Positions 4,455-44,113 of a stretch of DNA of 64,000 nt are shown piece after piece. The position numbers and the translations under genes are program-made. Source of the DNA: a virus (taxonomy: Duplodnaviria > Caudoviricetes); IMG/VR virus record IMGVR_UViG_3300031992_000012, positions 1-64,000 of that record. One strand, 5' to 3'. Below the pieces are notes generated by a model, which saw nothing but the letters and a program-made list of their open reading frames with translations, was not told the origin of the DNA and made no database searches. The first letter of the stretch is position 1, and every line of letters starts with the position of its first letter.

Positions 4455-4924
4455 AGATAACACTGATTGGAACAGACAAGGCCGTCCTGACACCAACGGG
4501 CGGCAAAATCAGGGACAAGCTCACGAACCGCCTCTACGGCGAGGTCTCTATCAAGCCCACCGCCATTTGGCGTTACGAGGACGCGGACTCCGTCACATAC
4601 GAGACCGTCGACCTCGACACCATCCCTGAGGAAGTCAGGGAGGTATTTGACCAGGTCGTAGGCCTTATCGTCAATCTAGCCAGGGGCTATGGCGCGATGG
4701 ACGCCCTCCGTTCCTTGGAGCAGGTCAACATCGCTTCGCTCTTTGGTCTCGCCAATCAGTTCAACGTTGACGAGAAGGATATGCAGAACCTTATAATGCA
4801 AGTCGTTATGCTTAAGACAGATATAGAGGCCAAAGTTCCTCGTTCGTGGTACGACCTGTGGAACGGCAACCTCAAGCCTTATCTGCTTGAAAAGATAATG
4901 ACCGTTACTCGTTCTACTAACTGA
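4451..4924 (+). CDS. Hypothetical protein (possible tail-fibre assembly helper)
   Basis: Translationally coupled ORF downstream of the fibre gene; function inferred from position only. Confidence 0.6.
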   Translation: MKITLIGTDKAVLTPTGGKIRDKLTNRLYGEVSIKPTAIWRYEDADSVTYETVDLDTIPEEVREVFDQVVGLIVNLARGYGAMDALRSLEQVNIASLFGLANQFNVDEKDMQNLIMQVVMLKTDIEAKVPRSWYDLWNGNLKPYLLEKIMTVTRSTN

Positions 4925-26589: not shown

Positions 26590-27609
26590 ATGCCATCAGA
26601 AGGAAACGGGCCCTTTCTTCCGGCCCCTACGATAAACAATTTGTTCAACCCCTTTGAGGAGCATCCCTACGCCCCTGAATGGCTACGCAGGATGGTCGGT
26701 GGCGACGCCAGCAAGCAGATATGGGCGGGCAAGATGACGCAGGCCGTCAACCTTGCTGCTCTTTTGTTCACGCTTGGCTACGGCTCCCGCAAGATGCTGC
26801 GGGGAATGGCTCCTGAAACTCAGGCCGCCCTCAAGGCAATAGACGAGTACGTCCCGTCAGGAATGAATGGCGGAATGCCCAGCGACAAGCGTCTGAAGGA
26901 CAAGCCAATCCCGCGCAAGCAGCGCAAGGCCGCCGCCCTGGAGTCCCAGGGAATCAAGACGGCCGCCGATTTGAACAACGTCGCCTGGACCCTCCCCCCG
27001 GCCGCCGCTTTCATGGCGTGGCTGGTCGGCCAGAAGATGGCCGAGAACGAAATCCATGCTGCGGACCTCAGTGATTCCGAAGCCCGTCTCGCCAAGGCGC
27101 GTTACGACTATGAGCGAGTCCTCGCCTCCAAGATTGACCCGAACGTGCAGTTGCCTGAAAAGGTAATCAAGAAGCGTGTGCAGAATCCTGTCGACTGGGC
27201 CATCGACAAGGGCATCGCCCTGAAGAACAAGATGCTCCATAAGGAAGCGGCCGATACCTACATTGGCTCCGCAGGGACGCCTTCGCCGTATGAAGGCGGT
27301 GTCTCTCCGAAGGAAGGCGGGATGGGAACATACCCAGCCCAGTTCTTCACATACCTGGAGGACAAGATTCCATACTTCAAGCCGCTGGCGACCTTGCTGG
27401 GAGCCCTGACTCTTGTTGGAAGCGCCAAATACGCGTGGAACAACAACCGTGCCCGTGACAAGAACATCCAGAAGGCGCTCGATACGGAAGCCGCGCTCAA
27501 GCAGCACGCGCTCGAGACAAACGACCAGCGCCTTGATATAGATGCTATAACGGGAAAGAAAGACCCGAAGCTCAACACATACCCCGGCGCCCTCGGCTTT
27601 GACAATTAG
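26590..27609 (+). CDS. Hypothetical protein with three hydrophobic segments (putative virion)
   Basis: KAAA, KTAA and KEAA motifs lie between the hydrophobic segments. Confidence 0.6.
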   Translation: MPSEGNGPFLPAPTINNLFNPFEEHPYAPEWLRRMVGGDASKQIWAGKMTQAVNLAALLFTLGYGSRKMLRGMAPETQAALKAIDEYVPSGMNGGMPSDKRLKDKPIPRKQRKAAALESQGIKTAADLNNVAWTLPPAAAFMAWLVGQKMAENEIHAADLSDSEARLAKARYDYERVLASKIDPNVQLPEKVIKKRVQNPVDWAIDKGIALKNKMLHKEAADTYIGSAGTPSPYEGGVSPKEGGMGTYPAQFFTYLEDKIPYFKPLATLLGALTLVGSAKYAWNNNRARDKNIQKALDTEAALKQHALETNDQRLDIDAITGKKDPKLNTYPGALGFDN

Positions 27610-27632
27610 TACAAGGGTCCGATATTACATGT

Positions 27633-27663
27633 GGCCGCCACGACTGAGTACGGGCGGCCTTTT
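27633..27663 (+). terminator. Intrinsic terminator
   Basis: GGCCGCC...GGCGGCC followed by TTTT. Confidence 0.65.
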
Positions 27664-27675
27664 ATTTAAATATTC

Positions 27676-27694
27676 CAACGCGTTGTAAAATCAT
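27676..27694 (+). promoter_or_regulatory. CAACGCGTTG-(G/T)AAAATCAT motif copy 2, upstream of the RNAP gene
   Basis: Near-identical to 9689-9707. Confidence 0.6.
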
Positions 27695-27706
27695 CAGGAC
27701 ATACCG

Positions 27707-30700
27707 ATGCCTATAGATCCAACCCAGCTTTACTCCCCAGGCGATTTCACGGCTGTCAGGAACAGGATATTCCAGGATTCCCTGGACGCTGTCCGCAACC
27801 GTTTCCCGATTGAGAACGACAGATACATCCTGTCGCTCGAGAACGCCGACTACGAGAACCCGAAGGAGTACACCCTCCGAGACCAGAAGAAGGCCGTGCA
27901 GAACGACCAGACGCTTTCGTGGAGAATAAAGGGAAACTGGGTTCTTACCGACAAGGCTTCCGGAAAAGTTATTTCACGCTCCTCCCGTCGGGCGATTATG
28001 GATGTTCCGTACCTTACACAACGAGGCACGTTCATTCGCTCCGGCACGGAGACGACGCTTCCTACGCAGATGCGACTCGTTCCTGGCGTCTACTCCCGCA
28101 TGGGCGAGGATGGACTGGCTAAGGCGCACATAAACGCAAGGCCCGGCACAGGCAACACCGTCATGATGACGCTCAACCCGGCCAAGCCCGTGTTCAAGGT
28201 GTCGGTGGGAACAAGGAACTACGACCTGTTCCCGCTGCTGAAGCATCTTGGCGCTACCGACGAGGACATAAAGAACGCCTGGGGCAAGGAGCTGTTCAAG
28301 GTCAATGAGGACGCCTTTGTCAACGGCGGCGGGTGGTATCGCGCCAAGACGGCCGCCGAAGTGGACCCGAACGACCCGTGGGAGAAGGCCGCAAAGGACG
28401 TCCTCGGCGGTGAGTTGAACGAGGACAATACTACGGCCACGTTCGGTAAGCCCTACAAGAAAGTGGACAAGGATTTGCTTCTGGCCTCCTCGGCGCGTCT
28501 TATCGGACTGGCCAAGGGACAGCATACCGGCGACAACCGTGACTCCATGGAGAACCAGCGGTTCTTCGGCCCTGCTGATTTCATAAGCGAGCGAATCCGG
28601 CTTGACGCGGGTGGCCTTGCCAAGAATCTCCTGTGGCGTGTAAGCCGCTACGGAGACACCGAGAAGATTCCTTCGGCGCCGCTTAGCAAGTATGTGCACG
28701 GGCTGTTCACCGAATCCAATCTAGCGCAGGCCATCGAGGAGACCAACCTGCTGGACGCCTACAAGCGAGCCACAATGGTGACGCGCATGGGCGAAGGAGG
28801 AATCGGCTCACTTGAGTCCGCCCCAATGAGCGCGCGTCTGGTACACAATAGTTATAAGGGATTCATCGACCCAATAGCTGCTCCAGAATGCTGTCACCCT
28901 GACCATTTGGTTTTTACCAAGAGAGGGTGGAAAAAAATAGCTGAGGTGACAACGGATGACTTTGTCGCTTGTTTGCTTGACGGCAGGTTGGAGTATAGGA
29001 AGCCAGACAGGGTGGTGTCTTATGACTTTGATGGCCTGTTATATGGTTTTGAGAACAAAGCCATTAAATACATGGTTACCGGTAACCACAGAATGTGGTG
29101 TGCCAAGGCGCCCGATAGACGCAAAGACAGTAAAAGAAAGTCCAAGGAATACGAATACGCTTTTTCGTATGCCGAGGACGTTCATAATACTAACTGCGTT
29201 ATGTTGTCTGGTGGATATAAGCCACTAATACATGACACAGTAACAAGTAAGACAATTACGGGAGCTAAGGAGTCTTATGTTTTTGATATAAAGGACTGGT
29301 GTGAGTTCCTTGGCTGGTTTGTTTCTGAAGGGTGTGTTGCAAAAGCAGATAACTCAGGTTTAAGCATAGCGCAGGTCATAAAGGTCAATCCCGATAATTG
29401 TGCTCGTATAACGAAACTCCTTAATAGAATGGGACTCCGTTTCAAGTACACTTCCGGGAAAATGTTTAATATCAGGTCGAAGGCTCTTCACGACGAACTG
29501 CTTCCTTTGGGCTACTGCTACGAAAAGTATATCCCGGACGATGTTTTTTCGTCACCCGAGGACGCGCAGAAACTTTTTATAGAGGCGGCGCTTTTAGGGG
29601 ACGGAAGAAAAGAGAAAAACGGTATGGGTGGTTTATGCACAACTAGCCCGAGACTTGCTCATGACTTTGAACGACTGTTGTTTGAGAACGGTATTCCCTG
29701 CAGGGTTTCGTTTGAGCCGGATAACAGGGAAGAAAGGTATAGAGGAATCTTTGTAACTAGACCTATAGTAGGAAAAGAGTTATGGCTTATCCGCAACGGT
29801 AGACTACGCTCTCACAGTGATAAGAGGAGTACGAGTTTCACGACAATTCCGTATAGGGGAAAGGTCTACTGCCTTACTGTTCCTGGAGGATTGTTTTTTA
29901 CAAAGATTGACGGTTTTAGAGGTTTCTGGACGGGCAACTCCCTCCGGGTAGGTCTTGATACCCAGATAGCCCATTCCGCACGCCGTGGACCGGACGGGCT
30001 GGCTTACTCCCCCGTTATCGACGTGACCACTGGTCAGCGCGTATACCTGTCCACCCTTGAGTCCAGCAAGATTCCGATCTCGTTCCCCGAGTACCGCGAC
30101 TCAAAGGACAAGCTTATCCCTGCCATGATAGGCAACGACATCGAGTACCTGCCCAAGAACCAGGTCCGTTATTTCATACCCAACGGCGACACGCTGTTCT
30201 CCACCGCCGCCGACTTCGTCCCGATCAAGTCCGGTATCAAGGCAGGCCGTCTGCTGATGGCGCAGAAGCACCAGACGCAGGCCATGTCCATCAAGGACAG
30301 GATGGCCCCCTATGTCCAGTCGCTGGACCCTGAAGGCTCCGGTAAGTCGGTTGAGGAAGTCTACGCCAACATCCTCGGCGCAGTGCGCTCCGACGCGGAA
30401 GGCAAGGTCGTCAAGGTCACAAAGGACGAAATAGTAGTGGCCGGAACCGATGGAAAGAAGCACTCGTACTCCCTGTACGACAACTACCCGCTCAACAGGA
30501 AGTCGGTTGTCAACAACACCGCTGCGGTCAAGCCCGGCGACATTGTCCGGCCAGGGCAGTTGCTCGCCTCGTCCTCGTACACGGACAAGAACGGCGTGGC
30601 GGCCCTTGGAACACAGCTTCGTTCGGCGTGGCTGTCATACAAGGGCTGGAACTACCTCGACGCTATTGTCGTGTCGGAATCGGCGGCCAAGAAGCTTACC

Positions 30701-33334
30701 TCAGAGCACTTCTACCATGAGGGCATAGACAGGGACGACGGCGTCGACTTCGGGCGTGACCGTTACATAGCGGCATTCCCGTCGCGCTTCAACCGTGAGC
30801 AGCTCTCCACGATAGACGCGAACGGAGCTGTCAAGCCCGGTACGATAGTCCATCACGGCGACCCGCTTGTCCTGGCCATGTCGCTCCGCCCAGGCGGACC
30901 AGGAACAGGATACCGCGCCCTTCACAAGGACATATCCTCCACATGGGAGCACGAGTTCCCGGGCGAGGTAACGGATGTCGTCGAGGGAAAGGACGGCATG
31001 CGCGTCTACGTCAAGAGCTGGGTACCGCTTCAGGTCGGCGACAAGCTGGCGACTCGTTTCGCCAACAAGGGTACGTGCGCGGCCGTCATACCCGACGAGA
31101 AGATGCCGCGAGACGCCGAGGGGCGCCCGCTAGAAATCCTGTTCTCGCCGACCGGTATCGTCAGCCGCTGCTTCGACGAACAGCACCAGTTGCTGACCCG
31201 TCAGGGATGGACCCCCATAGCGATGGTCAAGGGCACCGACGAGATATTCGCATACAACCCGCGTACCGGCAAAGGGGAGTTCCAGCGCCAGATACAGCCA
31301 ATCCATTCTTCCCGCTACTCCGGCAAGATATACATGTGCTCCAACAAGGATGTCGACTTCGCGGTCACGGAGGGCCACCGCATGTGGGCGCTGACCGATT
31401 TGGCGGAGGGTTTCAGGGAGGTCGTCGTCGACGACATCGCCAACACCCATGTCATAATCCCGGCATCCGGCAATGATTTGAAGCCGCTGCCGGTCGCCAT
31501 CCAGCCAAACGACTGGCGCGTCCTGCAGGCCGAGAACGTAAGCGTGCACTGCCCGACCGTACCTAGCGGCTACGTCTTCACAAGGCGCAACGGCGTAATC
31601 ACCTGCCTCGGCAACACCAACAGCGCGGCCCTTATCGAAGCCGCCCTCGGGAAGGTCGCCGAGAAGACCGGCAAGCGGTATGTGATGCCCGGTTTCGGCA
31701 CCGACCTAACGGCGTTCGCCCACAAGGAGCTCGCCGACGCGGGACTAACCGACCGCGAGGACGTCACCGACCCCGACACCGGCAAGAAAATCAAGGGAAT
31801 CTTCACCGGCAACTCCTACGTCACAAAGTTCCACCACACCTCCGAATCCAAGGGCGGCGCGCGCGCCACCGGTTCGTACACCGTCGACGAGCAGCCCGCG
31901 TCCGGCGGACATGACGGCGCCAAGACGCTCGGCGGACTCGTCCTCGGCGCCTTCGCCGGCCATGGCGCCTCCGAGGTCCTCAAGGACATGAAGCTCATAA
32001 AAGGGCAGAAGAACACGGATTTCTGGCGCGACTTCAAGATGGGGAAGAACCCCGTCACGCCCGGCGTCCCGCTCATCTACGAGCGGTTCCTGGCCTCCCT
32101 TGAGGGCTCCGGCATCCACATAACGAAGGACGGCGACAAGACGAACGTCTTCGCCATGACGAACGGCGACGTCGACAAGATAGCCCGCGCCGAACTAAAC
32201 AGCGCGGCCACGTACGACGACAAGCGCTTCCTGCCAATCCGGGGCGGTCTGTTCGACCCCGCCATCTTCGGCCCCGAGGGCAACCAGTGGGCCAAGATCA
32301 AGCTCGACGAACCCGTCCTCAACCCCATAATGGACGATGTCGTCTGCAACTTCCTGAATCTCAAGAAGGCCGAGCTGGACGACGTCCTCGCCGGCAGCAG
32401 GAAGCTTCCCAACGGAATGACCGGCGGCGAAGGCCTACGCCAGCAGCTCGCCCATGTCAACCTCGACTCCCTTATCGAGAACGCCAAGAACACAATCCGC
32501 ACCGGCCCCCCTTCCAGACGCGACAAGGCTGTGAAAACCCTCCGCTGGGCGTCCGCCATGAAGAACCACGACGCCACGCCCGACATGTTCATGCTGGACG
32601 CCGTCCCCGTCCTCCCGCCGAAATACAGGCGCATAACTCGGTCGGGCGACCTCAACATGATTGCCGACGCAAACTACCTCTACAAGCAGCTACTTGACTC
32701 CAGGGACGACCTGAGGCAGGCGAAGAACGCCGGACTGCCGGACGAGCTGCTCGCATACGGACGCAAGCGGATAACGGACTCCTTCCGCGCCATAACCGGA
32801 CTGGCCGACCCGACCGACAGGAAGCTGGTGGACAGCGACGTCACCGGTCTGCTGAAATGGGTGTTCGGGAAAGGTTCGCCAAAAATGGGCGCGGCCCAGC
32901 GGCTGGTCATAGGCGGCAAGCTTGACGTGGCCGGCCGAAGCGTCATCAACATCGACCCCAGGCTCGACTTCGACGAGATAGGGATGCCCGAGAAGCAGGC
33001 GTGGCCGCTGTACAGGGACTTTGTCATACGGAAGCTGGTGCAGGCGGGGATGAACCCGCTGCAGGCGACAAGGGCGACAGTGGAGCACACGCCGTTGGCG
33101 AAACAGGCGTTGATAAAGGCCATGAGCGAACGGCCGGTCATAGCGACACGGGCGCCCGCGCTGCACAAGTTCAGCGTCCAGGCGTTCAAGCCGAAGCTGG
33201 TTAGCGGGGATACACTGAAGCTGAACAGTGTAGTGGAGCATGCGTTTAACGCAGACTTTGACGGGGACCTTCAAATAAACAGCGTATTTGTAAGGTTTTA
33301 TGATAAATCGTCTGAGGGTCAAAAAATAAAATAG
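27707..33334 (+). CDS. Phage RNA polymerase: beta fused to the N-terminal part of beta', ending just after NADFDGD; two cis inteins
   Basis: RpoB motifs VPYLTQRGTFI..PGVY, GWNYLDAIVVSE, GDKLATRFANKG and KFHH..ARATGSY, followed in frame by RpoC motifs GLFDPAIFGP, VPVLPPKYR, AGRSVI, RAPALH and NADFDGD. Confidence 0.95.
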   Translation: MPIDPTQLYSPGDFTAVRNRIFQDSLDAVRNRFPIENDRYILSLENADYENPKEYTLRDQKKAVQNDQTLSWRIKGNWVLTDKASGKVISRSSRRAIMDVPYLTQRGTFIRSGTETTLPTQMRLVPGVYSRMGEDGLAKAHINARPGTGNTVMMTLNPAKPVFKVSVGTRNYDLFPLLKHLGATDEDIKNAWGKELFKVNEDAFVNGGGWYRAKTAAEVDPNDPWEKAAKDVLGGELNEDNTTATFGKPYKKVDKDLLLASSARLIGLAKGQHTGDNRDSMENQRFFGPADFISERIRLDAGGLAKNLLWRVSRYGDTEKIPSAPLSKYVHGLFTESNLAQAIEETNLLDAYKRATMVTRMGEGGIGSLESAPMSARLVHNSYKGFIDPIAAPECCHPDHLVFTKRGWKKIAEVTTDDFVACLLDGRLEYRKPDRVVSYDFDGLLYGFENKAIKYMVTGNHRMWCAKAPDRRKDSKRKSKEYEYAFSYAEDVHNTNCVMLSGGYKPLIHDTVTSKTITGAKESYVFDIKDWCEFLGWFVSEGCVAKADNSGLSIAQVIKVNPDNCARITKLLNRMGLRFKYTSGKMFNIRSKALHDELLPLGYCYEKYIPDDVFSSPEDAQKLFIEAALLGDGRKEKNGMGGLCTTSPRLAHDFERLLFENGIPCRVSFEPDNREERYRGIFVTRPIVGKELWLIRNGRLRSHSDKRSTSFTTIPYRGKVYCLTVPGGLFFTKIDGFRGFWTGNSLRVGLDTQIAHSARRGPDGLAYSPVIDVTTGQRVYLSTLESSKIPISFPEYRDSKDKLIPAMIGNDIEYLPKNQVRYFIPNGDTLFSTAADFVPIKSGIKAGRLLMAQKHQTQAMSIKDRMAPYVQSLDPEGSGKSVEEVYANILGAVRSDAEGKVVKVTKDEIVVAGTDGKKHSYSLYDNYPLNRKSVVNNTAAVKPGDIVRPGQLLASSSYTDKNGVAALGTQLRSAWLSYKGWNYLDAIVVSESAAKKLTSEHFYHEGIDRDDGVDFGRDRYIAAFPSRFNREQLSTIDANGAVKPGTIVHHGDPLVLAMSLRPGGPGTGYRALHKDISSTWEHEFPGEVTDVVEGKDGMRVYVKSWVPLQVGDKLATRFANKGTCAAVIPDEKMPRDAEGRPLEILFSPTGIVSRCFDEQHQLLTRQGWTPIAMVKGTDEIFAYNPRTGKGEFQRQIQPIHSSRYSGKIYMCSNKDVDFAVTEGHRMWALTDLAEGFREVVVDDIANTHVIIPASGNDLKPLPVAIQPNDWRVLQAENVSVHCPTVPSGYVFTRRNGVITCLGNTNSAALIEAALGKVAEKTGKRYVMPGFGTDLTAFAHKELADAGLTDREDVTDPDTGKKIKGIFTGNSYVTKFHHTSESKGGARATGSYTVDEQPASGGHDGAKTLGGLVLGAFAGHGASEVLKDMKLIKGQKNTDFWRDFKMGKNPVTPGVPLIYERFLASLEGSGIHITKDGDKTNVFAMTNGDVDKIARAELNSAATYDDKRFLPIRGGLFDPAIFGPEGNQWAKIKLDEPVLNPIMDDVVCNFLNLKKAELDDVLAGSRKLPNGMTGGEGLRQQLAHVNLDSLIENAKNTIRTGPPSRRDKAVKTLRWASAMKNHDATPDMFMLDAVPVLPPKYRRITRSGDLNMIADANYLYKQLLDSRDDLRQAKNAGLPDELLAYGRKRITDSFRAITGLADPTDRKLVDSDVTGLLKWVFGKGSPKMGAAQRLVIGGKLDVAGRSVINIDPRLDFDEIGMPEKQAWPLYRDFVIRKLVQAGMNPLQATRATVEHTPLAKQALIKAMSERPVIATRAPALHKFSVQAFKPKLVSGDTLKLNSVVEHAFNADFDGDLQINSVFVRFYDKSSEGQKIK
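28889..29938 (+). mobile_element. Intein 1 in RNAP beta (350 aa, LAGLIDADG homing endonuclease)
   Basis: PIAAPE|CCHPDHLV...VTGNH...FLGWFVSEG...VYCLTVP...WTGN|SLRVGL; exteins rejoin as the RpoB PIETPEGPNIGL equivalent. AT-rich. Confidence 0.9.
31169..31615 (+). mobile_element. Mini-intein 2 in RNAP beta (149 aa)
   Basis: PTGIVSR|CFDEQH...VTEGH...VHCPTVP...CLGN|TNSAALIE; exteins match RpoB PLGVPSRMNIGQILE. Confidence 0.9.
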
Positions 33335-33354
33335 GAAAAATATCAAACTCTGCC

Positions 33355-33382
33355 TTGACATTGTTCTTTTCCGCATTATAGT
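33355..33382 (+). promoter_or_regulatory. sigma70-like promoter in the gap of the split RNAP gene
   Basis: TTGACA-16 nt-TATAGT upstream of RBS AAAAGGAAAAG and ATG33439. Confidence 0.65.
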
Positions 33383-33438
33383 AATAGCATGTTCAATCGA
33401 GGAACGTGCTATTAACCCTAATGAAAAGGAAAAGAACA

Positions 33439-35526
33439 ATGAACAGAGTAAAGTTTTTCTCTAACGGCCAGACTTTGATTATGAACCTTGCGGATATTCC
33501 GCATGGTGCCCTTATCGGCTCCAAGGACTTTGACGATGGAAGGCACATTGACTTTTATGAGGCCCTTCCAGGAACACAGGTCATTGCATACGACGAAGCG
33601 ACGGGTAAGCCAAAGTGGGTTGATATCTCCGGTTGGTCGAGGCACACCGGTTCAAAATTGGAGCTGGTGCAGTTGTCCAACGGCGACACGATAACGACGG
33701 ACGACGACCCCCGCGCCGTTTATGGGATGCCTATTGACGCGGTTGGTTTGCAGATGGACAGGGACACGCCCGCTAACGCCAAAAAACGTGCGTTTATAGT
33801 CCCGCTGGTAGGGCAGCTTCCTGAGACTACTCCGGTGTTTTCTTCCGTTGACCTTTTGAACGGCGGTGTTCCTTCAAACGACACGCCAATCCCAAGCAAG
33901 GGAATAATAGCCGCCGACTACAATTTCGGACAGTTCCTTGGTCTTATCGCCGGAGACGGGTGGTGGCATAAGAGTATATACAGTTCTGGTTATAAAAACG
34001 CTGTTCTTTTAGCAGACCTTTACGGCTCAAATGCCGGCTTTATTATAAATTGGGCTAAGGAACTATTCCCTAGTTTTAAATACTACAAGAGCGAGCAGAG
34101 AAAGGAATTATACTCTGATCGGTTTGGTGACTGTATTTCGTGGTCCTTCTACTTCTACGATTCCATGATAATGTGCGACGCCCTGTCCAACATGCTTGAC
34201 GGGCATAGTGACAACAAAACGGCAGGAGCAGGGAACAAGCGTCTTCCTTACTGGTTCCTGTCCATGCCGAAGGAGTTCCGTCTAGGTCTTCTTAATGGTC
34301 TAATGGCTTCCGATGGAACAATAAATTTCAATTCCTCCGGCGACAGAAGCCACCCAGAACTGCAGCTTCAGTTCACATCGACATCCCGGGCGCTTATTGA
34401 CGACGTAAAGGCTTTGTGCACTTCCCTGGACATACGCGCCACAATATTATTCTCGAGGAAAACAGTCCGCGACAATACATCCTGGGTGGTTGTTCTGAGC
34501 TCCCAGGACTGCAAACGAATGGACGTCTTTTCCCGTTGCTGCTGCGACTATAAGCGTGATACGTTCCTGAACGCGGATGTCTCGATGGACGCGCAGTACA
34601 ATCACGGTGACTTTCTGCCGCTTCCGAAGCAGGTGTCCGATACAATGTTCAAATACGTGAAGTGCCGGGCGAAGATTGCCAAGGCGGTTATCGAGGATTG
34701 CCCTCTTCCTGCCTACTGCAAGAGGGGGAACTCCGTCTATCAGTCGTTGTACCAGTATAGGTCCAAGGGGTACATAACGAGGGAATTCGCAGGCCGGCTA
34801 TGCGACTGGCTGGACGATACGACAAGGATGAACCTATGGTTCAATGACTATATCAAGGATTTTACAACGCGTTTGAAAAACGGTGAGCGTGTTTTCAAGG
34901 CGGAGGAGGGGAACACGCTGGTGGAAGCCATAGCCTTCAATGCGGGTTATTTTGACAAACCATCTGTTCTTGAGGCACGGGCCAAGTCAAGCATGCTTCG
35001 TCAGAAGACAAGCAGGTTTCCTGTAAACTTGCCTGAAGCTCTTGAGAAGGTGACGCTGTCTGATGATGCTATCCTGTTCAATCCTGTCGAGAAGGACCCA
35101 GTGCTAAGGGCCTGGTTGGAACTGTCGGCGTGTCCGATAAAATGGGCTTACATAGAGGATGTCCAGAAAACAGGGCAGGAGGAGGAAGGATATGACCTTA
35201 CTGTTCCCGGATATGAGACCTTTGCGTCCGCCAGCGGAATAATCCTTTCCAACACAATGACATACTACGTGCCTGTCTCCAAGAAGGCCGTGCAGGAGGC
35301 ATACGACCTCATGCTTCCTTCCAAGAACCAGTTGGCGGCCCGTGACTTCAAGGCCCTTCCCGAGCTTCAGGAGGAGCTGGTCTCCGGGGCGTGGCTGGCG
35401 TCTCATAAGAAGAACGCGCCTGTAAAGGCCGTGTTCAACACCCGCGCCGAAGCCATAGCGGCCTACCGCGCAGGAGAAATAGACATAGACGACAATGTGG
35501 TAATAAAGGAAGACCAGCACCGCTGA
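33439..35526 (+). CDS. Intein C-fragment (Hint + LAGLIDADG, ~605 aa) fused to a 90-aa beta' segment that continues from NADFDGD
   Basis: FLGLIAGDG, LLNGLMASDG, EGYDLTVPGYETF...ILSN|TMTYYVPVSKKAVQEAYDLMLPSKN; the part after the bar matches RpoC [25 protein letters not shown]. Confidence 0.9.
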   Translation: MNRVKFFSNGQTLIMNLADIPHGALIGSKDFDDGRHIDFYEALPGTQVIAYDEATGKPKWVDISGWSRHTGSKLELVQLSNGDTITTDDDPRAVYGMPIDAVGLQMDRDTPANAKKRAFIVPLVGQLPETTPVFSSVDLLNGGVPSNDTPIPSKGIIAADYNFGQFLGLIAGDGWWHKSIYSSGYKNAVLLADLYGSNAGFIINWAKELFPSFKYYKSEQRKELYSDRFGDCISWSFYFYDSMIMCDALSNMLDGHSDNKTAGAGNKRLPYWFLSMPKEFRLGLLNGLMASDGTINFNSSGDRSHPELQLQFTSTSRALIDDVKALCTSLDIRATILFSRKTVRDNTSWVVVLSSQDCKRMDVFSRCCCDYKRDTFLNADVSMDAQYNHGDFLPLPKQVSDTMFKYVKCRAKIAKAVIEDCPLPAYCKRGNSVYQSLYQYRSKGYITREFAGRLCDWLDDTTRMNLWFNDYIKDFTTRLKNGERVFKAEEGNTLVEAIAFNAGYFDKPSVLEARAKSSMLRQKTSRFPVNLPEALEKVTLSDDAILFNPVEKDPVLRAWLELSACPIKWAYIEDVQKTGQEEEGYDLTVPGYETFASASGIILSNTMTYYVPVSKKAVQEAYDLMLPSKNQLAARDFKALPELQEELVSGAWLASHKKNAPVKAVFNTRAEAIAAYRAGEIDIDDNVVIKEDQHR

Positions 35527-39082: not shown

Positions 39083-42000
39083 ATGGAAGAAATCAGATTC
39101 TTTAGGAAGCGGTCCGGCCGTCTCGTGAACTTCAAACTGCAGAAGATTGCGGACGCGGTCGGGAAAGCCCTCGTCGAGGCGTGCGCAGCGTCGGGGAAGT
39201 CATTGGATGTCAAGGCCGTTTCCACGGCAATCGCCGAAAAGGTAAGGGCGTTGCTGGATGACAAGGACTCGCAGTTTTTCGTTCAGCCGGACAGGATGGG
39301 TTCGCGGGTCCCCCATCTGGAAGGCGTGCAGGACGCGGTTGTCAGCGTCCTCAAATCATCGCATGAAGATATAGAGGGGTATGACGCGAACATGGCCGAG
39401 CTCACGGGCCGTCTGTACGCCGACTACCGGAAGAAGAGGGACGAGGCCAGGAAGCAGCTCAAAGTCCGCAGCAGCAAGGACAACGCCGATGTGACTGACA
39501 AGGCCCTTCTCCTTGGGGACAGCAAGAACGTCCTCAACGGGTGGGACCGCGAGCGCATAGTCTCCGATCTCAAGGAGCACAACGTCGACGACGAAATAGC
39601 CGAGAAGGTCGCAAAGGAGACAGAAAGCGCTCTCCTGAAGACCGGCCTGTCTAGTGTGTCGTCCGACCTTGTCTCCGAATTGGTGAACAGTGTCATGGCC
39701 GACAACGGTCTTCCCATAAGACTCGCCGCCGGGAAGGGATACATAGTCGACAAGGATTTCGTCGAAGGGCTTATCAAGGAGAAGTCCGTAGAGAACAGCA
39801 ACATCGTCGGCAACAACCCTGAAGCGGTGGCCTTTGACATTGCCAGCAACGTTTTCAAGCAATACGCCCTTGACAACGTTTTCTCGAAGGACATCGGGGA
39901 AGCTCATATGAGGGGAGCAATACACCTTCATGATTTAAACTTTGTCATACGTGGCTACTGTGGTTCCCACAGCATCGAATACATCAAGAAGTGGGGGCTG
40001 AAGGGTCTGGTAAACCTGAACACGGAAAGCAAGCCTGCCAAGACCGCATCGGTCCTGACCGGCCATCTGAACACGTTCCTGGCTTCCATGCAGGCTTACT
40101 ACGCCGGAGCGCTGGGCCTGGGGTATCTTAACGTCCTCTATGCTCCGTTGATGACGGGAATGGACGACAAACAAATGCACCAGGTGGCTCAGGAACTTGT
40201 GTTCAACGGTTCTCAGAATGCGTTCAGCCGTGGTGGTCAATCACTGCATCCTTCCGAACCTATATGGATTAAAAAGGATGGTAGATATAAGAGTGTCCTT
40301 ATTGGTGAGTTTATCGACGAATATCTTGCCAGAAGGGCAGAGGCTGTTGAGAAGCGAGACGAATACGAGCTGCTCCAAACAGGAGACGAGGGTATCGAAA
40401 CAATAAGCTTCGACGGCCTAAGCGGAAAGGTACTGGACAAGACGGTTACTTTCCTTGCACGCATGCCTCATAAAGGCAAGATGTACCGTATTCACACGTC
40501 TAACGGAATTGTCAATGTTACAGGTGACCACTCGGTGTTCACTTTCCGGGGAAAGCAGGACATAGCTGATGTAAAAGCCAAGGACCTTAAGAGGGGCGAT
40601 TTTGTAGTCATACCCCACAGAGTTCCCCTCAAGGAGGAGAAGACAACAGTAAATGTTGTCGATTACGTTCCTGAGAAATGGCTATCGGTTAGTGGCTTTG
40701 AAAATTTCCTGTCCAAGGTGTCAGCTAAGGGCACCCCGGCAAAGGTCCTCGAGGAAGTCGGAGCTACCCGCTTTATCTTGAAAGATGGAAAGAAGACAAA
40801 CAAAGTAAGGATTTCCTTGGCTAAACATTTTGTTGATGTCAGGAATAGCGTTTTGTGTCTGAAGGGTGATAGCCAGTCGTTGTTGCCCGCAGAGATTCCT
40901 CTGACACGGGAGCTGGGCTATATAGCCGGTATGTTCTGCGCGGAGGGGTATAAAACTCTTAAGAAGGTTCTTATCAGCAATACTGATATAAAGCTTCTGG
41001 AGAAGGTACGGTCATGTCTGGATAAAATAGGGTACTCAGGATATTCCTATTACAACGGCATGATGCACGGAATGACGACGGACCATATAGAAATAGGCGG
41101 TGTTTTCGGGGCTTTCCTGCAATCTTCGTGTACATCCGGAAAGAAGACAAAAGTAGTTCCGGATTGGTTGTTCAACGCACCAATGGTTTGTCGTGAGGGG
41201 TTCCTTGATGGTTTCTTCGACGGTGAAGGCTCCAATAGGAAAGACTGCCCGGACGAATGGAGCGTCTCCAACACAAGCACACGGGTAGTGGCCGGTATAA
41301 GCTTGCTTTTACTGAACTACGGTAGAGAAACATATGTTTACGAAACCAAGCATGACAATGGCTGGTCTGACGTATATGAAGTCCGGGAAGCGCAGCGCAG
41401 AAAGGTCAATCCGTTTGACGAGTACACAACGGAAGAAGGGTTCCGCACATACAGCAAGCATCTGTCAAAGGATGTCAGGGATGCCGTGGAATGGCTCATA
41501 GAGTCAGACTTGTCGGTGTCTATCATCAAACGCATTGAGGAATACGATTATGATGGTCCTGTCTATGACATAAGCGTCCCAGGCACAGAGGCTTTCCTTG
41601 GTGGAACAGGGAATGTGTTTTTGCACAATACGCTTTTCATTGACTTCAATGTCCACAGCGGCGTCCCGTCGTATCTGAAGGATGTCCCCGCTATTGGACC
41701 TGGCGGAAAGTACATGGTTCAGGTCTTCCACTGCGGCGAACCCTTCATCAAGGAGCTCACCGAAGTCAAGGACGAGAAGACAGGCGACTGGGACCTCTAC
41801 CTTGACTGGGGCAACGAACATCCTGTCCGCATGCTTCATGAACACGACGGAAAGCAGGTGTTCGAGAACGAAAACACCGAGCGCCATGTCATGCGCTACG
41901 GCGACTACGCCGAGGATACCGCCCGTTTCGCCGAGGCGTTGCTCGACGTCTGGAAGGAAGGCGACGCCAATGGCCATGTTTTCGAGTTCCCCAAGTGCGA

Positions 42001-44113
42001 CTTCCATGTCTCCTCCGAGACATTCACGGACGCCCGCCAGTACCAGGTGTTCAGGAAGGCCTGCGAAGTGGCGAGTCACAATGGTTCGACCTACTTCGTG
42101 TTCGACCGCGATTCCGTGTCTTTGGCGAGTTGCTGCTTCACAGGAGACACCAGGATTCTTATTGGCGAGGACCGCGACCCGTCGCTTACATGTTTCCGCG
42201 ACGCCTATGACAAGTACGGAATCCACAACAGGACAATCCGTGTATACGACAGGGGCTCGTGGAGGAAGGCGAAGGTAATCCGCCTTTCCGGCAAGAACCG
42301 CCGAATGCTGTCGGTGAATCTGGCCTGCGGTAAGCACGTCTGCGTCACCGCCGACCATGAGTTCCCGACAACGCGCGGAGTGCTCAAGGCCTACGAGCTT
42401 ACCCCCGACGACGCAGTCCTGCTGTCCAGCAGCATGGCCGAAGGGCATCGCCGGTGCGAGGGAAAGGACAAGGCGCAGGTCTACGGAATCATAGCAGGCG
42501 CCTACCTGCTGTCCGGGCATTGCACCTCCACAGGCAAGACGATAGTCGTTGGAAACAGCCTTCCCGGCCTTGAAAACACGTTCTCGGAGACAATGAACAG
42601 CGCGCTTGAATCGGCAGGTTTCGACAAAGGCGTGTGCATGGTCGAGGAGGACGGCAACCGTCAAATGTGGGTCGTCACTAATCCTGAAATCCTCAACGGC
42701 GTTGAAAAATTGCTCAAGCGGACGGAGAACGGCGTATTCCTGTCCGATGCCATATATCGTGAGAGCCCGGCTGCCAGGGCCGCTGTCCTTATAGGACTCC
42801 TCGCGGCCTCCGCCGTCGAGTGCGAAGTGACTCCCGGCAGGATGGAGCTTCTTCTGGAGCAGATTGAGGCTATGGCCACGACCATCGGCGTAATCTGCAA
42901 AAAGCGAGTCGACGGGGATGACGTGTGCTTCTCCTTCGCCCCCGCAAGCATTGGGATGGAGGGCGAGACCATCGTCAAGGACGGTGAGAGCTATCTCAAG
43001 GTCCTGTCGGTAAAGGAAGTGCTGGAGCCCGAATGGGTCTACTGCTTCACTATGCTCGACACCAAGGACCCGTTCTTCACGCTGCCAAACGGTATCGTCA
43101 CGCACAACTGTCGATTGAAAGTGCAGATAACTGATATGTCGCTGTTGCAACATCCTGAAAGACTGAGAACACTAGGCTTTCAGAATGTCACAATAAACAT
43201 CCCTCAGTGCGCATACCGCGCCAAGCACAGGTACGACAGGGAAGGGGAAGGAAACATTGACAAGCTCAATGAATTCTTCCTTGCCGAAATCGACAGTATG
43301 ATGGACATATGCAAGGCCGCCCATCTCCAGAAGAAGGCGTTCGTCGAGACGCTGATGCGTCCCGGAGCGCCCATGTGGCAGATGGCCAAACCGTCCAACG
43401 ACGGCAATCCGTATCTCGACCTGAACACGGCCGTGTACATAATCGGCATGATTGGCCTCAACGACGCCGTCCACTATCTGACCGGAGAGGAGATGCACGA
43501 GTCCGACGCCGCCATGGACTACGCCCTCAACGTGATGACTCACATGTACCTGCGCTCCAAGGAATACACCAAGGAGACAGGCCTGACGTTCAAGCTCGAG
43601 GAAAGCCCGGCTGAATCGGCGGCTCGCCGTCTGGCGAAGGCCGACCTCGCCCTTTACAGGGAGGACGCGCTCAAGGTGTTCAAAGGCACCGAGGACGCCG
43701 CCTACTATACGAATTCCATACATCTGTCGGCCGACGCGCCGGTGGACATAGTGGAGCGTATCAGGAAGCAGTCGATGTTCCATAGCATCATCGAGAGCGG
43801 GGCGATTATTCATGTCTTCCTGGGCGAGTCCCGCCCCACGTCCGGAGCCATAGAGGAGCTTATACGCAATGTGTTCCTGCGTACCCAGTGCGCCCAGCTT
43901 GTCTTCAGCCCGGAGTTCACCTACTGCAACGAGTGCGGAAGGGAACAGGCCGGATTGAAGGACACATGCGATCAATGTGGTTCTTCTAACGTAATAGGTA
44001 TAACACGCGTTGTAGGTTACTACTCTGTCGTGCAGAATTGGAACAAGAGCAAGCGTTATGGCGAGCTCAAGGCACGCCAGCGCGGCAACTACAACGTGGA
44101 GGAGGCGAAATGA
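39083..44113 (+). CDS. nrdD: Anaerobic (class III) ribonucleotide reductase with N-terminal ATP-cone(s) and two inteins
   Basis: KRSGRLVNF..KIADAV (ATP cone), IHLHDL..YC, SRGGQ|T, SC|CRL, EESPAES, YYTNS, CNEC..CDQC and RVVGYY glycyl-radical motif. Confidence 0.95.
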   Translation: MEEIRFFRKRSGRLVNFKLQKIADAVGKALVEACAASGKSLDVKAVSTAIAEKVRALLDDKDSQFFVQPDRMGSRVPHLEGVQDAVVSVLKSSHEDIEGYDANMAELTGRLYADYRKKRDEARKQLKVRSSKDNADVTDKALLLGDSKNVLNGWDRERIVSDLKEHNVDDEIAEKVAKETESALLKTGLSSVSSDLVSELVNSVMADNGLPIRLAAGKGYIVDKDFVEGLIKEKSVENSNIVGNNPEAVAFDIASNVFKQYALDNVFSKDIGEAHMRGAIHLHDLNFVIRGYCGSHSIEYIKKWGLKGLVNLNTESKPAKTASVLTGHLNTFLASMQAYYAGALGLGYLNVLYAPLMTGMDDKQMHQVAQELVFNGSQNAFSRGGQSLHPSEPIWIKKDGRYKSVLIGEFIDEYLARRAEAVEKRDEYELLQTGDEGIETISFDGLSGKVLDKTVTFLARMPHKGKMYRIHTSNGIVNVTGDHSVFTFRGKQDIADVKAKDLKRGDFVVIPHRVPLKEEKTTVNVVDYVPEKWLSVSGFENFLSKVSAKGTPAKVLEEVGATRFILKDGKKTNKVRISLAKHFVDVRNSVLCLKGDSQSLLPAEIPLTRELGYIAGMFCAEGYKTLKKVLISNTDIKLLEKVRSCLDKIGYSGYSYYNGMMHGMTTDHIEIGGVFGAFLQSSCTSGKKTKVVPDWLFNAPMVCREGFLDGFFDGEGSNRKDCPDEWSVSNTSTRVVAGISLLLLNYGRETYVYETKHDNGWSDVYEVREAQRRKVNPFDEYTTEEGFRTYSKHLSKDVRDAVEWLIESDLSVSIIKRIEEYDYDGPVYDISVPGTEAFLGGTGNVFLHNTLFIDFNVHSGVPSYLKDVPAIGPGGKYMVQVFHCGEPFIKELTEVKDEKTGDWDLYLDWGNEHPVRMLHEHDGKQVFENENTERHVMRYGDYAEDTARFAEALLDVWKEGDANGHVFEFPKCDFHVSSETFTDARQYQVFRKACEVASHNGSTYFVFDRDSVSLASCCFTGDTRILIGEDRDPSLTCFRDAYDKYGIHNRTIRVYDRGSWRKAKVIRLSGKNRRMLSVNLACGKHVCVTADHEFPTTRGVLKAYELTPDDAVLLSSSMAEGHRRCEGKDKAQVYGIIAGAYLLSGHCTSTGKTIVVGNSLPGLENTFSETMNSALESAGFDKGVCMVEEDGNRQMWVVTNPEILNGVEKLLKRTENGVFLSDAIYRESPAARAAVLIGLLAASAVECEVTPGRMELLLEQIEAMATTIGVICKKRVDGDDVCFSFAPASIGMEGETIVKDGESYLKVLSVKEVLEPEWVYCFTMLDTKDPFFTLPNGIVTHNCRLKVQITDMSLLQHPERLRTLGFQNVTINIPQCAYRAKHRYDREGEGNIDKLNEFFLAEIDSMMDICKAAHLQKKAFVETLMRPGAPMWQMAKPSNDGNPYLDLNTAVYIIGMIGLNDAVHYLTGEEMHESDAAMDYALNVMTHMYLRSKEYTKETGLTFKLEESPAESAARRLAKADLALYREDALKVFKGTEDAAYYTNSIHLSADAPVDIVERIRKQSMFHSIIESGAIIHVFLGESRPTSGAIEELIRNVFLRTQCAQLVFSPEFTYCNECGREQAGLKDTCDQCGSSNVIGITRVVGYYSVVQNWNKSKRYGELKARQRGNYNVEEAK
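40241..41629 (+). mobile_element. Intein in NrdD (463 aa, LAGLIDADG)
   Basis: RGGQ|SLHPSE...VTGDH...YIAGMFCAEG...FLDGFFDGEG...VYDISV...FLHN|TLF. Confidence 0.92.
42134..43108 (+). mobile_element. Intein in NrdD between the paired active-site cysteines (325 aa, degenerate endonuclease)
   Basis: ASC|CFTGDT...VTADH...VYCF...VTHN|CRL; the LAGLIDADG-like helices lack their acidic residues. Confidence 0.9.

Follow-up and report, generated by a model that had tools for sequence, protein, structure and literature searches.

What kind of RNA polymerase is encoded at positions 27707-35526 (+) of the phage DNA considered here, a window that makes up the first 64 kb of the 205,081-bp IMG/VR virus record IMGVR_UViG_3300031992_000012 (CheckV completeness 94%)? 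A preliminary description of the sequence had placed at this locus a chain in which the beta subunit continues into the N-terminal part of beta', with the remainder of beta' predicted to lie elsewhere. The answer that we reach, and hold to be probable, is that the locus encodes the large catalytic subunit of a phage multisubunit RNA polymerase of the type carried by the Salmonella phage Arash, in which the beta-beta' tether, packaging in the virion and the joining of two polypeptide pieces would each play a part. The enzyme is a new form of phage multisubunit polymerase, of which cultured members already exist, unrecognised as such.

Beta and beta' are fused in one reading frame

The locus is filled by two open reading frames (ORFs) in different frames, and not by one. 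ORF1 (27707-33334, +) encodes 1875 amino acids (aa) and ends at a TAG stop (33332-33334), and ORF2 (33406- or 33439-35526, +) encodes 706 or 695 aa depending on the start. Within ORF1, the Pfam profiles Rpb2_6 (E 3e-34, 119 bits against a cut-off of 23.4) and Rpb1_2 (E 5e-19, 69.5 bits against a cut-off of 25.3) are matched in the same frame, accompanied by an Rpb1_1 match under the Pfam cut-off; beta does run straight into beta', as the preliminary description had it, with the junction near aa 1470. Among solved beta chains, the beta part aligns to that of Thermus with an E-value of 8e-31. The alignment to bacterial beta extends to the beta C-terminus and passes from there directly to the first conserved strand of bacterial beta', about 15 N-terminal beta' residues being absent at the fusion point. 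An AlphaFold model of aa 1304-1854, for which 55 relatives were used (mean predicted local distance difference test, pLDDT, 87.7; predicted template modelling score, pTM, 0.77), joins the final strand of beta and the opening strand of beta' in a single hairpin, and the best Foldseek matches of this model are cyanobacterial gamma and bacterial beta' (E 1e-24, TM-score 0.6).

Two inteins interrupt beta, which comes to 971 aa once they are removed. By alignment to bacterial beta, extein 1 (aa 1-394, 27707-28888) comprises the protrusion, a shortened lobe and the fork/Rif region. Intein 1 (aa 395-744, 28889-29938) is a 350-aa element with a LAGLIDADG endonuclease, and possesses Cys1, a TGNH block B, a terminal Asn and a +1 Ser. 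Extein 2 (aa 745-1154, 29939-31168) contains a flap whose tip (aa 1059-1070) is truncated, together with a portion of the catalytic double-psi barrel, an assignment based on Pfam Rpb2_6, alignment to PDB chains and an AlphaFold model. Intein 2 (aa 1155-1303, 31169-31615) is a 149-aa mini-intein with Cys1, a TEGH block B, a terminal Asn and a +1 Thr, and extein 3 (aa 1304-1470, 31616-32116) forms the C-terminal clamp part of beta. The fused beta' part follows directly (aa 1471-1854, 32117-33268); its 384 aa include the clamp helices, lack the zinc ribbon and end with the catalytic NADFDGD motif (aa 1848-1854). Past this motif ORF1 runs for another 21 codons (33269-33334, including the stop).

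The preliminary description had the chain end about 90 aa after NADFDGD. This extent was correct: intein-free relatives stop 86-93 aa past the motif, and the corresponding 90 aa exist here too, bringing the beta' part to 474 residues. They sit, however, at the end of ORF2 (35254-35526, including the stop codon), behind the TAG, a 104-nucleotide (nt) spacer and a change of frame. They begin at a Thr and continue the barrel strand that follows NADFDGD.

Modules that contact sigma region 4 and flanking DNA are trimmed

Three modules hold sigma region 4 and the upstream or downstream DNA in bacteria: the flap tip, the zinc ribbon and a portion of the lobe. All three are reduced here. The reported deletion of the beta' zinc-binding domain is real: in the alignment to solved beta' chains, four residues separate the conserved GLF..FGP motif from the next strand, where bacteria have about 35 with four cysteines, and the corresponding segment is 24-26 aa long and free of cysteine in 55 out of 55 family members and in Arash and the Vibrio phage D69. 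The beta' subunits of Rhizobium phage RHph_Y65 (1127 aa) and Vibrio phage 150E35-1 are likewise of bacterial type with NADFDGD, but they are unfused to beta and retain the four-cysteine ribbon; loss of the ribbon is therefore specific to the fused clade.

Replacement of the flap-tip helix, also proposed beforehand, is seen in alignment and model alike. The flap is eight residues shorter than that of Thermus beta and lacks the helix on which sigma region 4 docks; in the AlphaFold model of aa 745-1154 (mean pLDDT 86.5), the tip is a 10-residue loop between two strands (loop pLDDT 85-89). The flap-tip segment measures 39 aa, a length shared by 46 of 52 relatives, as against 45 aa in Arash and D69, where it may still form a helix. 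A feature beyond the preliminary description is a beta lobe that falls short of its bacterial counterpart by about 125 aa: aa 41-195 and 251-394 match bacterial beta, and aa 195-251 stand where bacteria have about 180 residues. The clamp helices that dock sigma region 2 are retained, as judged from the beta' alignment and from two long helices at model positions 351-394. A loss of canonical sigma region 4 docking is possible.

The rest of beta', a sigma-like protein and no detectable alpha

A third gene carrying the remainder of beta' was predicted to lie outside the window, and it does. At G000:C1:105538-107829, 70 kb from the fusion gene, a 763-aa protein with Rpb1_5 and Rpb1_4 matches carries the bridge helix, the trigger loop and the second zinc site; its trigger loop is split by a canonical 140-aa mini-intein (G000:C1:106513-106932). 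Total beta' amounts to about 1097 aa. The C-terminal beta' protein (beta'C) aligns to mycobacterial beta' from residue 664, where NADFDGD ends at 539, and starts about 22 residues before the start of RpoC2. The break had been placed at about the cyanobacterial RpoC1/RpoC2 site; it is close, within about 20-35 residues, and not at it, so that on these alignments the beta' break lies near those of cyanobacteria and of phiKZ and coincides with neither.

Profile searches of the whole 205-kb genome found one beta and one beta' set. The genome further encodes a 244-aa sigma-70-family-like protein (134861-135595), a homologue of Arash gp10 (E 8e-10) that matches PHROG 351, 'RNA polymerase sigma factor' (E 3e-12), and resembles sigma regions 2, 3 and 4 weakly. 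A six-frame search with Sigma70_r4 gave no match; it was Arash gp10, PHROGs and region 2 that led to the protein. A six-frame Pfam search of the genome revealed no homologue of alpha.

Cultured relatives and comparison with known polymerases

Megablast of the locus against 50,697 phage records returned no match. The closest relatives are Arash gp206 (WGL32657.1, 1525 aa) and Vibrio phage D69 0261 (1527 aa), both intein-free and at 28-34% identity; each stops 93 aa beyond the Asp triad. Related clusters that combine beta and beta' domains in one protein number at least 119, with protein lengths from 1413 to 2931 aa according to intein load, on contigs of up to 209 kb. Arash gp206 and the homologues of phages D69, D181 and D148 share the beta-beta'N ORF, the end at about 90 aa and the absence of the zinc ribbon, and Arash and D69 also have separate genes for beta'C and the sigma-like protein, with a portal gene just upstream of the fusion. 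These homologues are annotated merely as 'beta subunit' or 'hypothetical protein', and the portion of the Arash paper available to us names gp206 just 'beta subunit' (PMC10585845).

In the literature searched, the beta-beta'N fusion architecture was not found; the jumbo-phage reports among it deal with phiKZ/AR9-type enzymes only, and with the lineage of RNA-polymerase-encoding Caudovirales (mReC), for which no architecture is given. The mReC study of Weinheimer and Aylward (2020) uses beta and beta' as separate markers, applies 'fused/fusion' to crAssphage alone and does not use the term 'intein' (PMC7481178). Like this phage, mReC come from metagenomes and have bacterial-like beta and beta' that can still be aligned to cellular enzymes; a Pfam Gp23 search for the T4-type capsid family reported for mReC gave no match here and none in the controls either.

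The phiKZ/AR9 polymerases have beta' split after the double-psi barrel and no alpha or omega (PMC7598289). They resemble the present enzyme in being phage-encoded, in lacking alpha and in the beta' split past the barrel, and differ from it in that beta is divided into two or three polypeptides, two enzyme sets are present and a sigma homologue is absent, whereas here beta is unsplit and one set is accompanied by a sigma-like protein. As gauged by E-values and TM-scores, phiKZ-type enzymes are also far more diverged, with no phiKZ-like phage among the tblastn matches listed at E 1e-5 and structural TM-scores of 0.23-0.39.

Among cellular enzymes, natural rpoB-rpoC fusions occur in Helicobacter and Wolbachia and likewise join the beta C-terminus to the beta' N-terminus, but these organisms keep a full-length beta', alpha, omega and the zinc ribbon, in contrast to the first 474 beta' residues only that are fused here. 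The cyanobacterial and plastid RpoC1 (gamma)/RpoC2 pair is also broken after the catalytic barrel, and gamma is the best structural match; gamma, however, ends 154 aa after NADFDGD rather than 90, retains the zinc ribbon and is unfused.

Promoters, translation and possible packaging of the polymerase

Mass spectrometry of Arash virions gave gp206 the top spectral count and detected gp216 (beta') and gp10 (sigma) (PMC10585845). By analogy, we infer that the polymerase of this phage, together with its sigma-like factor, would be packed in the virion and start phage transcription.

The pattern TTGAC[AT]-N15-18-[TG]ATAN[ATG] has only two matches in 205 kb, each before a polymerase ORF, and this raises the alternative of a non-virion polymerase that is made early by the host RNA polymerase from these two promoters and then takes over transcription in the manner of T7; the single polymerase set, in place of the virion and non-virion pair of phiKZ, would suit it as well. 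The match upstream of ORF1 (TTGACA-N16-GATATT, 27599-27626, +), sigma-70-like in form, is weak. A GC-rich hairpin with a T run, probably the terminator of the upstream gene, occupies 27627-27706 between it and the start codon and weakens the promoter call. The match before ORF2 (TTGACA-N16-TATAGT, 33355-33382) has a consensus TTGACA box, and its -35 and -10 boxes are invariant in five relatives although the spacer between them varies. Neither the beta'C gene nor the sigma-like gene has a TTGACA-type promoter, the fusion gene adjoins the portal gene as in Arash (a gene upstream of it in the window is a homologue of the Arash portal gene, E 8e-46), and the Arash homologues are abundant in purified virions. 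We consider a host-driven, T7-like takeover unlikely on these grounds, and virion packaging the better account. PHROGs assigned no family to the four genes between the portal gene and ORF1, nor to the two that follow ORF2.

Besides the promoter, the stretch that separates ORF1 from ORF2 (33335-33438, +) contains a ribosome-binding site and a hairpin. In this hairpin (33347-33449; -56.5 kcal/mol, z -6.3), the promoter spacer base-pairs with the start codon and the ribosome-binding site of ORF2, and seven of its pairs are changed on both sides across five relatives. Judging from this folding, ORF2 translation would be blocked on a read-through transcript and free on the promoter's own transcript.

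The enzyme had been proposed to be independent of a -35 element, in keeping with a single short promoter motif. Neither part of this proposal is upheld. The recurrent GTAATAAT motif is bipartite, with [CT]T[GA]AAA lying 12-16 nt upstream at seven of twelve sites against 0.07 expected, which amounts to the canonical 17-bp spacing. The combined [CT]T[GA]AAA-N12-16-GTAATAAT sites are all on the plus strand, at window positions 4921, 35523, 37225, 46434 and 63103 and at genome positions 71466 and 83536; the copies that were checked (35523, 37225) are intergenic. The sigma-like gene and the bipartite motif, as read from the genome, argue against -35 independence without proving the contrary, and the retained clamp helices and the TTGACA box before ORF2 point the same way.

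A split element interrupts the catalytic loop

The break between ORF1 and ORF2 falls directly after the Asp triad that binds Mg. The 21-aa tail of ORF1 is homologous to the first Hint strand of elements that are unsplit in other contigs (P0019, P0020, L015-L021), and its residue 1 is Leu here and L, K, S, F, D, Q, E or A among relatives, with no conserved nucleophile. ORF2, from the start codon 104 nt beyond the ORF1 stop, opens with a 605-aa Hint and LAGLIDADG element (33439-35253, +) that retains both LAGLIDADG Asp residues and a Ser-Asn end; an Intein_splicing match under the Pfam cut-off accompanies that of LAGLIDADG_3. Among 120 family members, 53 have a homologous tail of 21-24 aa, six have an unsplit element, 12 have a different element and about 33 are empty, which makes splitting the most frequent state in the clade. 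Fourteen stand-alone ORF2 homologues were found (96-37% identity), with the beta-beta'N gene directly upstream wherever the contig genes were readable.

Could the element be dead and the gene in decay, with the catalytic loop cut and the polymerase no longer functional? The two beta inteins and the beta'C intein all have Cys1 and TxxH; the ORF2 element has neither, its block B being an invariant TDxD (TDDD here) with no TxxH anywhere in the element, and the cut comes right behind the Mg-binding Asp residues. All catalytic motifs of the polymerase are nevertheless intact, the split form is common rather than exceptional, and the tail, the Hint blocks, Ser-Asn and Thr+1 are under clear constraint in a 14-protein alignment that extends to 37% identity. 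All 14 aligned proteins, and every element-bearing locus that was read, keep the terminal Ser-Asn with Thr directly behind it; in empty alleles the +1 residue is T, A, N, Q or V. We regard decay as very improbable. That the break is an assembly or sequencing frameshift in one continuous intein-bearing ORF is more remote still: contiguous forms of the element occur in the contigs named above and indels can arise in metagenome assemblies, but at least 53 related, independent protein clusters at 45-99% identity are cut at the same site with a homologous tail, contigs L009, L010 and L014 and five relatives show a stop, a 54-140-nt gap, a ribosome-binding site, an ATG and a separate ORF2, the boxes of the gap promoter are conserved, and the relation between the two frames differs from locus to locus.

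By its defining residues, the element does not fall into a known intein class. For class 1, the terminal Asn and a +1 nucleophile are present, and a Cys, Ser or Thr at position 1 and a block-B TxxH are absent; a class 2 mechanism fails, there being no Cys+1; and for class 3, an invariant Tyr-Asp stands where the block-F position-4 Cys of the WCT triplet would be. Since Thr is always there when the element is present, the sequences suggest that Thr+1 of element-bearing alleles acts as the nucleophile. That the Asp at -1 forms an anhydride attacked by Thr+1 is pure speculation. When ORF2 (aa 12-706) and the C-terminal 90 aa of ORF1 were modelled as a complex, the score was 0.01 against a mark of 0.32, which speaks neither for nor against an interaction. 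Rfam searches of 33150-33600 gave chance-level matches only and no intron or ribozyme, leaving a join of ORF1 and ORF2 at the RNA level unsupported.

Atypical split inteins with a short N fragment are known from phage genes in AceL-TerL, GOS-TerL and VidaL. These share with the ORF1/ORF2 element the very short N piece (21-24 aa in the present family), the long C piece and the phage setting. They begin, however, with Cys or Ser and lack an endonuclease domain, in contrast to the variable residue 1, the block-B His-to-Asp change and the LAGLIDADG endonuclease in the C piece seen here.

Other insertions occur at the same place. A second homologous element, with a canonical Cys1, occupies the site in P0021, P0024, P0026, P0102, P0104, P0114, P0117, P0119 and P0135, one relative that bears it being 99% identical; in nine of nine the preceding motif is D-x-D-G-N and the element ends in Asp, not Asn, and canonical splicing would leave Asn in place of the third Mg-binding Asp. 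In Vibrio phage 150E35-1 (L050, 6974-11776), beta' is cut inside the catalytic motif, the downstream ORF starting M-HDGD-TMAVH with two small ORFs between; the site thus appears to be an insertion hot spot for elements of a different kind as well, perhaps introns. Elsewhere in the window, the gene for the anaerobic ribonucleotide reductase NrdD (1676 aa, 39083-44113) has two Intein_splicing and two LAGLIDADG matches, and inteins accordingly occur in at least three genes (ORF1, beta'C and NrdD), in addition to the non-canonical element of ORF2.

Discussion

A model for this polymerase can be proposed. Beta is covalently joined to the beta' segment that bears the clamp helices and the Mg-binding NADFDGD loop, and the bridge helix, the trigger loop and the second zinc site are encoded by the gene 70 kb away. 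The tether between beta and beta' may assume some of the assembly functions of the alpha dimer, and the enzyme is pared down at the modules that in bacteria hold sigma region 4 and DNA. In the mature subunit the two canonical inteins would be removed, and ORF2, presumably expressed from its own promoter, would provide a non-canonical, naturally split Hint element that joins, or at least delivers, the last 90 residues at the catalytic loop; we infer the joining of the two polypeptide pieces.

Several points weigh against this model. Identity to Arash is only 28-34%, and the phage is known from sequence alone. Known splicing classes require an N-terminal nucleophile and a block-B His, and the ORF2 element has neither. 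Pfam may have missed a highly diverged alpha-like assembly factor, and the position of both genome-wide TTGACA-type promoters before polymerase ORFs could indicate host-driven expression rather than late expression for virion loading.

A broader claim would be that the family represents a third, undescribed design of viral multisubunit RNA polymerase: sigma-dependent, virion-packed, with a tether replacing alpha, devoid of flap tip and zinc ribbon, and often with its catalytic loop completed after translation by a split, endonuclease-bearing Hint element that lacks Cys1 and lies outside the three known intein classes. We advance this claim tentatively, as a conjecture that in its entirety is rather doubtful.

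Detailed knowledge of phage multisubunit polymerases is limited to the phiKZ/AR9 type, which is assembled from many pieces and has no sigma homologue. The enzyme described here follows the opposite trend, with beta and beta'N fused, a sigma-like factor kept and the modules for sigma region 4 and flanking DNA removed. The site in its catalytic loop is a hot spot for mobile elements; their chemistry is unusual, and they would make maturation of the polymerase depend on events at the protein level. Cultured members, Arash on Salmonella and D69 on Vibrio, make direct testing feasible. If it is true that the tether replaces alpha, the enzyme would be a natural minimal core of the bacterial type, useful for asking which functions require alpha, the zinc ribbon and the flap tip.

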